Notes under the pieces: model-generated
What the model saw: only the letters and a program-made list of their open reading frames with translations
Told to the model about the DNA's origin: nothing
The model's database searches: none
DNA from: Escherichia phage AV101
Sequence record: OQ973471.1
Reading direction: 5' to 3' (one strand)
Length of the DNA stretch: 64,000 nt
Made by a program: the position numbers and the translations under genes
In this document: piece by piece, positions 61,352 through 64,000 of the stretch
Layout: the number at the start of each line of letters is the position of its first letter
How positions within the stretch are numbered: position 1 is the stretch's first letter

Positions 61352-61921
61352 ATGCACATTAACACAGCAATCATGAAACACATTATTCCTTTGTTAGCAA
61401 AATACGAAGGGGAACGCGCCACGAATATCCCTTTTGAAACAATCACCGATGAAGTAAAACGCCTGACAGGTAAAAGTATCAATTTCCGTCGCGTTATTGA
61501 ATCTGCGTTAGAGTTGGCCCGTTCTGATTTACGAAATCCAACATTTTCATTTAACATTGACATAACTTCTTCACTTCGACAAGAATTGGAAGAATCATCA
61601 CAAGCACGGCGCGATCGCTTCCGTCATTTATATGTTCGTAACGAATTCTCTGAAGGTCGTGTTGGTATGAAACTGGAGTCTATTCGTTCTGACATTTGCT
61701 TCACTGTCAACTACGTTTTAGAGCCAGAGAGCCAGCGCATTTATTTTGGCGCGATTATCGGTTTCTATGGGAACTCCATTAATGGTTGGGCAGAACGTGT
61801 TGGATTAAAAGAAACTCAGAACACTCATTCCACACCTTCTACCCATTATATGACGCATGAAGCTGCTGGTGAATATGTTTACCTTCTGCGTCGTGTTGTG
61901 AAGTTAGAAGTGTTAAAATAA
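61352..61921 (+). CDS. hypothetical protein
   Basis: 189-aa plus-strand ORF with GAGG RBS; divergent from the late cluster. Confidence 0.5.
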   Translation: MHINTAIMKHIIPLLAKYEGERATNIPFETITDEVKRLTGKSINFRRVIESALELARSDLRNPTFSFNIDITSSLRQELEESSQARRDRFRHLYVRNEFSEGRVGMKLESIRSDICFTVNYVLEPESQRIYFGAIIGFYGNSINGWAERVGLKETQNTHSTPSTHYMTHEAAGEYVYLLRRVVKLEVLK

Positions 61922-61978
61922 CGCTTTATTCAATAAATAATTACAGTAAAGTTATTTGCATGGAAGGGAGGGAACACT

Positions 61979-62125
61979 ATGTTTTACATGATGTTACTCC
62001 TCATCCTCCTGATCGGGATTACCTTTACTCTCCTGGGTCTACCCGATCAGTCCGGTAAACAGACGCCCACTTCGGCGCATCCGGTTTTGAGTTCAGGTTC
62101 GTCCGCACTGCTGTGGGCAGTGTAG
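61979..62125 (+). CDS. small hydrophobic peptide (48 aa, below the ORF-track cutoff)
   Basis: Manual translation MFYMMLLLILLIGITFTLLGLPDQSGKQT...; GGAAGGGAGGG upstream. Confidence 0.4.
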   Translation: MFYMMLLLILLIGITFTLLGLPDQSGKQTPTSAHPVLSSGSSALLWAV

Positions 62126-62636
62126 CTCAAAGAGGAGAGGACTTTTCAAATTAGTTGGGCTGTAGTATAGTAAATTTTATGGTGTAAAGAGTCGGGCGAC
62201 TAGCGGTGTAAAGGTTGAGGCCAAGCACAGTCCTAGGACGAGGACTCCGGCTCCATAAGTCAATATCCACCTTGCATGGTGTCAGTGGACGCACTTGACC
62301 GTCGGAGAACGAAACTCCCTGTTGTAGCGTGATTAGCTCAGAAATAGAGAGCACCCCGTTGGCAAGTCGACACCAACACAAGGGGAGGTCGGGGGCGCTA
62401 ATCTCCATCACGCCGACAACATTATGAGTCTTCCATAGAGGGTTCATAATGTTGCGTCAAAGGGCAACAAGGTTCCTGTTGGTCGAATTAACTTGATTCA
62501 TAGTTCCTACTGATCTTCCCGGATTCGAAGGAGCACCAACAGGCGAGACCGGATGCGTAAGTTCCGGCAAAATGTTGGTGGGTGTGACATAGTCCGCGAA
62601 TGGAAATGTCCAACAAACAACAACAAAGAGGTAGTT
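62126..62636 (+). ncRNA. candidate structured RNA or long structured leader
   Basis: About 510 nt with no credible ORF; perfect 11-bp hairpin CAACATTATGA/TCATAATGTTG (62414-62457) and CCTGTTGG/CCAACAGG pairing. Confidence 0.25.
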
Positions 62637-62885
62637 ATGATCAATTTAGAGAATTTACAGAAGCAACTGGGTTGGGATGGGGTTTCATGCACTCTGGTGA
62701 AATCTGAAGACTCAACCAAGGTAGAAATCTCAGGACGGAAGCGTGCCATCGCTCTGGTGGACAAGAAGTTTGAGAACTACGATGCCCTGTATAATTTCTC
62801 GGCCTCGTGTCAGGCTGTTTGGGTTGAGTCTGTGGAAGTTAATTCAGACAACACCATCAAAGCAGTCATGGGCTGGCTGAAGTAG
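62637..62885 (+). CDS. hypothetical protein
   Basis: Start at MINLENLQ with AAGAGG RBS. Confidence 0.5.
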   Translation: MINLENLQKQLGWDGVSCTLVKSEDSTKVEISGRKRAIALVDKKFENYDALYNFSASCQAVWVESVEVNSDNTIKAVMGWLK

Positions 62886-62889
62886 ATTA

Positions 62890-63763
62890 ATAGTGCGGTG
62901 GTCTTGAGTACACCGCAACTTAATTTAAGGTTTTGTCAATAACGGGTTACAAAGTATAGTTAACCTACTGAACGAAAAGCTGTTTGGGCATTAGACAAAC
63001 ACTTCGATGTGAACCCAGGACATGGCGTCTTGTGCTCAAATAGGTTTTCGTTTTCGTTGTGCGTGACTTTGCGGGTTTTTAGAAACTGACCAAGCAAATA
63101 ACTGCTAATGATTCCGAAGTTCTGATGGCGGCGTAACAGCCTATAAGTCAGTGAGGTCTTCCGATTCCTCATCACCAAATTCGGCGCACTAAAATAGACG
63201 GGAGGGTGTGATTAATAATCTCCCGTCGACAATGCCGTTATATCTGACTGCCCAAAGGGGATAAGCTCCTGAGTAAGCAGAGGTGGGTTGCCTAAGTCAG
63301 ATGGGATGTAAGGTCAGCGCTGGCCGAGCATTTGGGTTCGACTCCCTAAAACGGCACCACATCTTTGAGGATATTCTCACGAGTATCTTGAAAGATGTGA
63401 GCGAAGTCTTGCCATCAGCCCTGATCCCTGGCAGGTGAAGGGCACACAAATCGAAGTGCCTTGACAATTTATCTTAAACCCAAAGGTTGATCTACAAATT
63501 GGACGGCCAATCCGGTGGACGATAACAGCATATTGGGCTATACTGTTGAGTCAGGGCACTTCGATTTGTGAACTTGAGAGAGCATTGGGTGAAATAGACC
63601 ATGCCTTGCAGATTGCGATGCCTACACATTCCGGACACTGGTGGGCACCAAGAAGAACTCAGTAGCAGACGAGCCATCAGGGTTAGCTACCCGGCGCGGC
63701 GAGGACTGGGAGGCCGAACTAAGGGGAAACCCGAGACAGGCGTAGTATTCTCAAGTTCACAAA
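62890..63763 (+). ncRNA. candidate structured RNA locus
   Basis: About 870 nt without credible ORFs; 16-nt and 12-nt exact long-range complements; tRNA-like 3' end at 63332-63359. Confidence 0.25.
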
Positions 63764-63973
63764 ATGAAGAGCATTAAAGAACTCGCAAAGGACCTGAAAT
63801 TGGTATCCCTGGCTTGTACCACTGAGTGTTCTTCATCTTTGGGTGATTCTATGTTGCCGGGCTATCAACCCATGCTTGCTGGAGCAACCAGCGGCTCTGA
63901 ATCAACCAGCCAGTCTCGTTTGGTCCGAGCGTTAGAGGACAAGTTGCTTCTACATGGAAGCTGCGAGTTGTAA
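63764..63973 (+). CDS. hypothetical protein (doubtful)
   Basis: 69-aa ORF with ATG start but no recognisable RBS. Confidence 0.2.
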   Translation: MKSIKELAKDLKLVSLACTTECSSSLGDSMLPGYQPMLAGATSGSESTSQSRLVRALEDKLLLHGSCEL

Positions 63974-64000
63974 CATTTGGTTGCAACTTTGATGGCTCTG

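Follow-up and report, generated by a model that had tools for sequence, protein, structure and literature searches.

A conserved RNA with a short tag reading frame, very probably related to tmRNA, in the RNA-gene array of Ackermannviridae phages and in unrelated enterobacterial phages

The last part of a 64,000-nucleotide (nt) stretch of Escherichia phage AV101 (sequence record OQ973471.1; the whole stretch is referred to below as the window) includes about 1.8 kb, positions 61925-63763, with little protein-coding content and several long inverted repeats. Here, we describe three structured RNAs encoded in this 1.8-kb stretch, RNA A (~62178-62575), RNA B (62967-63359), and RNA C (63445-63760), all of which are conserved across the family Ackermannviridae. 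RNA B is conserved and structured, contains a 10-codon reading frame that evolves like translated sequence, and carries a core that is common to unrelated phage families. Taken together, we consider it very probable that the stretch is an array of RNA genes and that 62967-63359 encodes an RNA related to transfer-messenger RNA (tmRNA). A role of RNA B in ribosome rescue and tagging that resembles trans-translation is held with considerably less confidence and is weighed below against the alternatives.

A start-less reading frame embedded in conserved pseudoknots

Ahead of its tRNA-like domain, RNA B comprises, in order, a long 5' hairpin (I1), a candidate pseudoknot (PK1), the tag frame, a hairpin comparable to the P5 helix of tmRNA with the stop codon in its loop, and two further pseudoknots, PK2 and PK3 (Table 1). 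PK1 ends 5 nt ahead of the tag frame, which is preceded by the motif AUAACU; the AUAA at positions -6 to -3 is invariant across the homologues. An in-frame UAG is located 8 codons upstream of the frame and, between this UAG and the GCN codon that opens the frame, neither an AUG, GUG, or UUG start nor a Shine-Dalgarno sequence is found in frame in any lineage.

The fold was assessed in 48 diverse homologues (less than 94% identical to one another). The pseudoknotted model of the core is 89.9% paired in this set, compared with 37-43% when the pairing partners are slid, and 19 pairs are changed on both sides (156 cells); none of 500 shuffles matched the observed values. Most of the covariation falls in the outer stem of the P5-like hairpin, both stems of PK2, and the PK3 hairpin, and some in the PK3 loop pairing and stem b of PK1. 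The P5-like outer stem is 100% paired with covariation at 4 of its 4 pairs (one of these is A-U in 27 sequences and G-C in 21), and the inner stem alternates between G-C and A-U. Stems 1 and 2 of PK2 are 99% and 91% paired, with compensatory changes at 3 of 5 and 3 of 4 pairs, respectively (CCGA:UCGG, CCAG:CUGG, and CCAA:UUGG). In PK3, covariation extends to each of the 4 pairs counted in the hairpin stem, and the loop segment 63206-63210 pairs back to 63185-63189, with one pair found as CG in 32 sequences, GC in 6, and UA in 5. Pairing in stem b of PK1 amounts to 89%, and some of the change there is compensatory (N4-like phages have UUAUG/CAUAA). The stem of hairpin I1 covaries as well (GGGCA/UGCUC, GAGUCCU/AGGACUC, and GGGGUUAAG/CUUAACCCC).

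The reading frame between these structures is constrained at the protein level. All 46 distinct tag sequences encode 10 amino acids that follow the pattern A-N-(D/E)-x-x-x-(L)-(M/A)-(A/V)-A (for example, ANDDVVLMAA, ANEEMYLAVA, and ANDNTFLAVA), the first codon always specifies alanine (GCN), and all three stop codons, UAA, UAG, and UGA, are used, commonly with a second in-frame stop. Over these 46 sequences, the mean entropy at the third codon position is 1.12 bits, against 0.61 and 0.53 bits at the first and second positions, and identical tags are encoded by several synonymous variants. Because the stems covary and the third codon positions vary about twice as much as the others, the tag frame appears to be translated. 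As judged from sequence comparison, the pattern is that of a translated frame entered without normal initiation, the defining trait of the tmRNA message domain.

Distribution of the element

The window belongs to an Ackermannviridae phage, with Escherichia phage LHE287 as the top match (98%) and approximately 400 further matching records from Kuttervirus, Agtrevirus, and Taipeivirus. The 170 nt around the tag are the sole part of the region that also matches unrelated phages, namely, T1-like siphoviruses (Sa179lw and Klebsiella phages of ~46-48 kb), the N4-like Gamaleyavirus IME11, and lambdoid prophages of E. coli; in the prophage of strain 55989, the element is flanked by the genes for the Q antiterminator and the holin. 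When the prophage core served as the query, 762 phage records were matched in the Vi1-, T1-, N4-, Felix O1-, and P1-like groups, and this search added Felixounavirus, the P1-like Punavirus RCS47, and Erwinia phages. Matches were also obtained in 656 of 5426 complete E. coli genomes, at 150 chromosomal places and 554 times on plasmids of ~90-108 kb that we infer to be P1-like phage-plasmids, and pattern scans of IMG/VR yielded 134 distinct loci. Among bacterial contigs representing one genome per species, almost all matches were due to chance and only two were true, so that the element is, in essence, restricted to Enterobacterales phages and prophages.

The element usually resides in or beside tRNA gene clusters, where it is either unannotated or overlapped by 'hypothetical protein' calls. 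In the siphovirus Sa179lw, the element has a promoter and a terminator of its own and is oriented antisense to the structural genes on either side. A consensus promoter directly precedes it in wV8. The siphovirus promoter sits immediately ahead of PK1, and the RNA is predicted to begin at PK1 itself in the siphoviruses as well as in wV8. The promoter of RNA B itself is conserved from Kuttervirus through the Ackermannviridae of Serratia, Erwinia, and Dickeya. In Limestonevirus (Dickeya phage JA15, locus L143, 1500-1600), this promoter and the first ~40 nt of the RNA are kept, and the tag domain is swapped for an unrelated sequence.

Comparison with known RNAs

RNA B shares with bacterial tmRNA (ssrA, RF00023) a start-less GCN frame of 10 codons that reads AND... 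and has an AUA motif and a candidate pseudoknot upstream, a hairpin whose loop holds the stop codon, and further pseudoknots downstream, along with a T loop and an ACCA end nearby. E. coli tmRNA encodes the tag ANDENYALAA and has its AUA equally far from the resume codon; the spacing of the AUAA at -6 to -3 in RNA B matches that of A84-U85-A86 in E. coli. Unlike bacterial tmRNA, RNA B lacks G3·U70, its tRNA-like part does not flank the message on both sides with a closing P2 helix, it has three pseudoknots instead of four, its Rfam score is 10-20 bits where the cut-off is 47, and the phage tags end in MAA or AVA rather than LAA. A recent copy of the host ssrA gene, or an attachment-site remnant, was considered and rejected given that the similarity to E. 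coli ssrA extends over at most ~11 nt, at the first tag codons.

The best Rfam matches of RNA B are the two-piece permuted tmRNAs of alphaproteobacteria, betaproteobacteria, and cyanobacteria (RF04321 and RF01849-51). In a permissive search, the only notable matches in RNA B were to tmRNA_permuted (62986-63136, 21 bits) and to the tmRNA T loop (63334-63346), and tmRNA families were the top sub-threshold matches in every lineage (tmRNA_permuted at 21-33 bits, along with alpha_tmRNA, beta_tmRNA, and tmRNA). As in permuted tmRNA genes, which hold P2 and the tRNA-like domain at this site, a hairpin stalk directly precedes PK1: the tmRNA_permuted alignment sets the P2 helix on the stem of hairpin I1, and, in N4-like phages as well as in Ackermannviridae, Rfam puts the pre-PK1 hairpin at the P2/tRNA-like-domain site. 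Unlike in permuted tmRNA, the tip of the upstream stalk is only 14-40 nt long and lacks a T arm or acceptor, and the tRNA-like domains of the phages have the standard strand order and are located beside the stalk rather than inside it. The comparison suggests that RNA B descended from a permuted tmRNA that lost its tRNA-like domain, and the two-piece mature form of permuted tmRNA, produced via tRNA-processing enzymes, offers a plausible analogy for RNA B.

In overall architecture, the array also recalls the stable RNAs 'species 1 and 2' of the phage T4 tRNA gene cluster and the bacterial Y-RNA-like YrlA. These RNAs are small and stable, have long stems that bear tRNA-like modules, are matured by tRNA enzymes, and are encoded next to tRNA-related genes of the phage or the host. 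Unlike these, RNA B has a tag reading frame; for YrlA, the likeness is architectural only, and Rfam gave no match to it.

Phages are known to carry tmRNA genes or parts thereof (PMC4131195, PMC11915505). An exhaustive ssrA survey published in 2014 listed phage tmRNAs only from mycobacteriophages and Bacillus phage G, along with an RNA of phage DS6A that consists of the tRNA-like domain alone, and reported none from enterobacterial phages (PMC4131195). The 2025 database update includes 79 phage sequences and relied on ARAGORN and BLAST seeds, requiring both tRNA-like segments and the CCA positions (PMC11915505). The RNAs of the mycobacteriophage Bxz1 group, phage G, and DS6A are canonical enough for ARAGORN and BLAST pipelines, unlike RNA B, and, compared with the DS6A RNA, the opposite half, the message domain, is the conserved part here. 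Neither these tag peptides, nor phage tmRNA-like RNAs, nor a tmRNA of Ackermannviridae or P1 was found in the full-text literature, a source of incomplete coverage that does not extend to the phage list of the tmRNA database.

A tRNA-like 3' domain and its variation among relatives

In the window, PK3 is followed by a predicted tRNA-like domain without a D arm. Its acceptor strands are GCCGUU(A) and AAACGGC, and between them lie a 9-bp arm topped by 46 nt of structured sequence, a hairpin as the variable arm, and a T arm with the T loop UUCGACU (63337-63343); the discriminator is A63356, followed by CCA at 63357-63359. The CCA and the T arm are kept in Kuttervirus and Agtrevirus. In other Kutterviruses, a further tRNA-like module is inserted exactly 5' of G63234, and in phages Menlow and aagejoakim the domain is deleted and UAAAACGGCUCCA is retained.

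Beyond the CCA stands a long stalk hairpin, which, in relatives (L038 and L058), bears a tip of ~60-100 nt containing a T arm. In Serratia phage 3M, Erwinia phage phiEa2809, and the siphovirus, N4-like, P1-like, and lambdoid versions, PK3 is followed instead by a 16-bp stalk with the consensus CACAAC-A-GGUAAGAGCA paired with UGCUCUU-UCC-GUUGUG. The basal helix of this stalk covaries to CAUAAC/GUUAUG and CUAUC/GAUAG, its tip is hypervariable, and in many cases a tRNA-like 3' domain of one of several kinds comes after it. The modules around the tag domain recombine independently.

Two kinds of modules recur downstream of the tag domain in the collected loci. A stalk module of ~16 bp (L004, 4902-4970 and 5148-5228; L005, L006, and L008-L138) combines an upper part that hardly varies (GGUAAGAGCAUUG.../...CAGUGCUCUUUCC) with a base that covaries and a hypervariable tip of 40-170 nt, sometimes with a T arm; it occurs in tandem repeats with tRNA genes, shuffles independently of its neighbours, and could serve as a site of processing by RNase III or RNase P or as a scaffold that carries variable RNA payloads. 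In addition, IME11 (L006, ~2730-2860), L008, L010, L017, and other loci encode tRNA-like 3' domains with complementary loops, D-like GGCUGA and T-like AGAUCAGCA, that share 5 nt of complementarity (GCUGA:UCAGC), which suggests a kissing-loop substitute for the tRNA elbow.

The Felix O1-like Escherichia phage wV8 (L241, 1665-1746) encodes a D-armless tRNA-like RNA with G3·U70, A73, CCA, and an anticodon-like loop CUUCUAA (UCU), located 40 nt after the tag domain. This RNA passes the Rfam tRNA cut-off with 31.7 bits, is unannotated and missed by ARAGORN, and was detected in 263 phage records, including Felixounavirus, rV5-/phi92-like, T5-like, and jumbo phages. As a candidate for the missing alanine acceptor, it was rejected because it is widespread in phage groups that are absent from the tag-core matches; since it is present in many other groups, its link to the tag domain is not specific and is suggestive only.

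Four other possibilities were likewise rejected. An acceptor stem of standard topology formed by GCUGUUU (62979-62985) and AAACGGC (63349-63355) is incompatible with hairpin I1, in which GCUGUUU is held by a stem that covaries in three lineages. A 5' acceptor strand in the promoter spacer of the siphoviruses (UUGUGGUG) was dismissed because changes in the spacer are not compensated in the 3' strand, and a circular permutation with the T arm first in the stalk tips because the T arms there are in the standard order by the 3' strand of the stalk. No convincing pairing of the message piece was found, either with the tRNA-like piece or with the tmRNA of the host, as the duplexes were energetically no better than those of shuffled sequences.

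Other RNAs and features of the array

Three sigma-70-like promoters are predicted by consensus scan in the stretch (62143-62171, 62933-62960, and 63516-63544), and the coordinates of the other features are given in Table 1.

Table 1. Predicted features of the RNA-gene array in the window
Feature	Position	Strand	Description	Basis
48-aa open reading frame (ORF)	61979-62125		phrog_8415, conserved	
Promoter of RNA A	62143-62171	+	TTTTCA-17-TATAGT, sigma-70-like, predicted function	Consensus scan
RNA A	62178-62575	+	Structured RNA, ~400 nt, boundaries approximate	Alignment of 15 Ackermannviridae
tRNA-like cloverleaf	62327-62414	+	Inside RNA A	Rfam tRNA sub-threshold match, covarying stems
Perfect 11-bp hairpin	62417-62454	+	Directly 3' of the RNA A cloverleaf	Conserved in relatives
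82-aa ORF	62637-62885	+	Good Shine-Dalgarno; between RNA A and the RNA B promoter	
Promoter of RNA B	62933-62960	+	TTGTCA-16-TATAGT, 10/12 consensus positions	Consensus scan
5' hairpin I1 of RNA B	62971-63052	+	Long; tip ~30-40 nt	Covarying stem
PK1 (candidate)	63043-63098	+	Stem a, 63043-63049 with 63082-63087; stem b, 63068-63074 with 63090-63098	
Tag frame	63104-63136	+	GCU AAU GAU UCC GAA GUU CUG AUG GCG GCG UAA = ANDSEVLMAA*	
P5-like hairpin	63122-63151	+	Stop codon in the loop	
PK2	63152-63184	+	H-type; stem 1, 63152-63156 with 63167-63171; stem 2, 63161-63164 with 63181-63184	
PK3	63185-63227	+	Hairpin 63197-63204 with 63220-63227; conserved loop GGUGUGAUUAAUAAU	
tRNA-like domain	63234-63359	+	D-armless, 126 nt	Predicted fold, Rfam tmRNA T-loop match
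Long stalk hairpin	63358-63399	+	After CCA	
RNA C	63445-63760	+	Structured RNA, ~315 nt	RNAalifold, 11 sequences

The consensus fold of RNA A, obtained with RNAalifold, has 88 pairs, 7 of which show compensatory changes, and the -10 element of its promoter is kept in the closest relatives. In the cloverleaf within RNA A, an extended stalk carries the 7-bp acceptor stem; a D arm and a T-like arm are present, CCA is absent, and the anticodon arm and loop region is ~18 nt larger than usual. Its match to the Rfam tRNA family (RF00005) is 24.3 bits (E 0.04), short of the cut-off of 29, and ARAGORN did not detect it. Compensation is seen in the acceptor stem, the inner stem of the anticodon arm, and other pairs (GCGUGAU/AUCACGC versus GUGUGAU/AUCACAC, and GUUGG/CCAAC versus GGCGG/CCGC). 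A 98-aa ORF annotated over RNA A on the opposite strand in some records was rejected as a gene, being broken in relatives by D-loop insertions of 20-42 nt.

The consensus of RNA C has 72 pairs, of which 17 show compensatory changes; a closing helix (63445-63465 with 63550-63570) is followed by an adjacent one (63571-63579 with 63749-63757), and both helices are among the parts with such changes. The sequence 3' of RNA C varies among relatives, which marks RNA C itself as the conserved unit. Its 3' arm adjoins the AUG at 63764 of the next ORF, and the segment just past this arm, 63758-63772, could pair alternatively with 63556-63570; through this alternative pairing, RNA C may use its 3' end as a switch that controls translation of this ORF. 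The motif CACUUCGAU(G/U)UG at the tip of the 5' hairpin of RNA B (63000-63011) recurs in RNA C and is complementary to the 5' arm of RNA C (segments 63447-63458 and 63557-63568); the match is lost in a Kuttervirus variant, and the complementarity is probably fortuitous. In Salmonella phage heyday and related records (L001, 5132-5152), the depositors annotated a 21-bp 'repeat_region' inside the stretch aligned to RNA C.

The 82-aa ORF is a lineage-specific insertion outside the RNAs that is absent in all relatives examined and has no family match in Pfam or PHROG. In other relatives, this region contains genes for HNH homing endonucleases or different inserts, and the record numbering of several Kuttervirus phages begins within the RNA array. 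The array lies just upstream of the site where relatives have a tRNA gene cluster: in one of them (L002, 5660-6469), five canonical tRNA genes (Met, Trp, Asn, Tyr, and Ser) are found just past the position of the window's right end, and the window itself contains no tRNA detectable by ARAGORN.

The region had initially been singled out in a sequence-only reading as a largely non-coding, highly structured stretch with only two short genes, a fair description given the 48-aa and 82-aa ORFs. Of the inverted repeats that it listed, the perfect 11-bp hairpin is present as described (arms 62417-62427 and 62444-62454, 100% complementary), is extended to ~13 pairs by RNAalifold, and is kept in 15 relatives; the exact 16-nt pair is the core of the 21-nt, 95% complementary closing helix of RNA C, and the 12-nt pair exists with its second arm at ~63749-63760, a slip of 10 nt from the 63739-63750 originally assigned. 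That such repeats exceed chance expectation was borne out: for arms at most 400 nt apart, 61925-63763 contains an exact inverted repeat of 16 nt as the longest and three of at least 11 nt, and neither the length nor the count was equalled in any of 300 dinucleotide-preserving shuffles (longest repeat, mean 6.2 and maximum 13).

The sequence-only reading proposed one or more structured RNAs, and three such blocks with compensatory changes across Ackermannviridae and promoters in front were indeed identified, the comparison with relatives that it recommended having revealed conserved structure in each; the tmRNA-like tag frame with its flanking pseudoknots had escaped it. Its suggestion of a ribozyme or intron-like element found no backing, as no covariance model of a ribozyme, group I or II intron, or riboswitch reached E <=10 in 61800-64000. 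The Rfam and ARAGORN scans that it proposed were likewise empty over the whole window, with zero families at the gathering score and zero matches, respectively. To take the lack of Rfam hits as grounds for rejection, as that reading had, would wrongly discard the present finding because both tools are silent here.

Possible roles of RNA B

We favour, with some reservation, a function of RNA B in a process of ribosome rescue and tagging that resembles trans-translation. Whole or as two pieces separated by RNase P, RNA B would act during infection; ribosomes stalled on broken mRNAs would resume on the phage-encoded frame, the ribosome would be freed, and an ssrA-like tag specified by the phage would be appended, with the C-terminus LMAA in this phage and LAVA in relatives, where that of the host is LAA. 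The route of ribosome entry, the charged tRNA-like piece, if any, and the benefit to the phage are elements of this scheme that we infer. What limits our confidence in the full mechanism is the question of the acceptor.

Several observations weigh against this scheme. The 3:70 pair of the tRNA-like domain is C-G and not the G3·U70 that AlaRS needs, and a scan of the collected loci revealed no element with G3·U70, A73, and CCA in the window. The tRNA-like domain lies wholly 3' of the message domain, neither nested nor circularly permuted, and a cut by RNase P is expected to separate the two parts. This domain is missing from Menlow, aagejoakim, Serratia phage 3M, and phiEa2809, all with an intact tag domain, and not all relatives have a canonical T loop close to the tag domain. 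Stem a of PK1 is nearly invariant, poorly aligned, and without covariation support. With 21 and 10.5 bits, the Rfam tmRNA scores fall far below the cut-off of 47, ARAGORN detects 0 tmRNAs in the 146 sequences scanned, and a Pfam search of the four neighbouring ORFs gave no match to SmpB.

The layout of the locus would also fit a decoy or inhibitor, in which separate message-like and tRNA-like RNAs soak up SmpB, S1, RNase R, and EF-Tu, so that host rescue is shut down or retuned. Such a role would explain the split layout, with the tRNA-like domain outside the tag domain and devoid of G3·U70, and is in line with the presence of the tag domain alone in some relatives and with the report that the RNA of phage DS6A, which consists of the tRNA-like domain only, inhibits tmRNA in E. 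coli (PMC4131195, PMC11915505). It leaves unexplained, however, the codon-periodic variation, the synonymous changes in identical tags, the constant length of 10 codons, and the interchangeable stops, and we regard it as unlikely.

Doubtful to a slightly greater degree is the proposal that the universal unit is a message domain without a tRNA-like domain of its own, onto which stalled ribosomes would change template, with the GCN codon positioned by PK1 and the AUA motif for Ala-tRNA, or with a tRNA-like RNA provided in trans. If this were true, trans-translation of a new architecture would operate in many well-studied groups of coliphages, namely, the P1-, Felix O1-, N4-, T1-, and Vi1-like and lambdoid ones.

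A template switch that dispenses with a tRNA-like domain altogether, whereby a free message RNA, guided by PK1 and the AUA motif, enters the empty A site and mRNA channel of a stalled ribosome and its GCN codon is read by Ala-tRNA, is less probable still. The core of pseudoknot, tag, and pseudoknot is the only universal part, its tRNA-like neighbours are gained, lost, and shuffled independently, the RNA begins right at PK1 in siphoviruses and wV8, and the first tag codon is always Ala, all of which a template switch would accommodate. Nevertheless, it has no bacterial precedent, transfer of the nascent chain in the absence of a specially delivered A-site acceptor has no known mechanism, and tRNA-like modules are nearly always nearby.

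We also considered whether the region contains merely intergenic elements, such as terminators, RNase III stalks, regulators in 5' untranslated regions, and decayed tRNA or tmRNA pseudogenes that recombination left in a hot spot of tRNA genes, in which case the RNAs would have no own function. The mosaic structure of the region, where modules are inserted or deleted between relatives and homing-endonuclease genes occur nearby, the resemblance of the long stalks to RNase III sites, and the overlap of the 3' arm of RNA C with a start codon all agree with this explanation. Yet at least 6 unrelated phage groups have kept the core, several of whose stems show compensatory changes, dedicated promoters are present along with one unit that runs from promoter to terminator, the tag frame has a coding signature, and the similarity to host ssrA is limited to the first tag codons, which argues against an attachment-site remnant; collectively, these features render it very improbable. 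Finally, a micro-gene for a free 10-residue ssrA-like peptide, for example, a competitor of SspB or ClpX made by normal or non-canonical initiation, would be compatible with protein-level selection on the frame and with the similarity of the peptide to the ssrA degron but merits hardly any credence, given the lack of start codons and Shine-Dalgarno sequences in every lineage and the embedding of the frame in conserved pseudoknots exactly as in tmRNA.

Implications

Trans-translation is generally seen as a bacterial housekeeping process, and phage copies of its RNA are known mainly from mycobacteriophages. The novelty here is an RNA, very probably derived from tmRNA, with a tag frame under selection, which annotation has overlooked in hundreds of phages and prophages of enterobacteria, some of them related to classic model phages; the element escapes the usual annotation software, and 'hypothetical proteins' have been spuriously called across it. 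Its non-canonical layout provides a test of which parts of tmRNA are truly needed. If the role in rescue and tagging that we favour is correct, phages would routinely bring their own template for ribosome rescue or tagging, which might benefit them by keeping ribosomes working while defence or phage nucleases cut mRNAs or by relabelling truncated proteins with a tag that is treated differently by host proteases.

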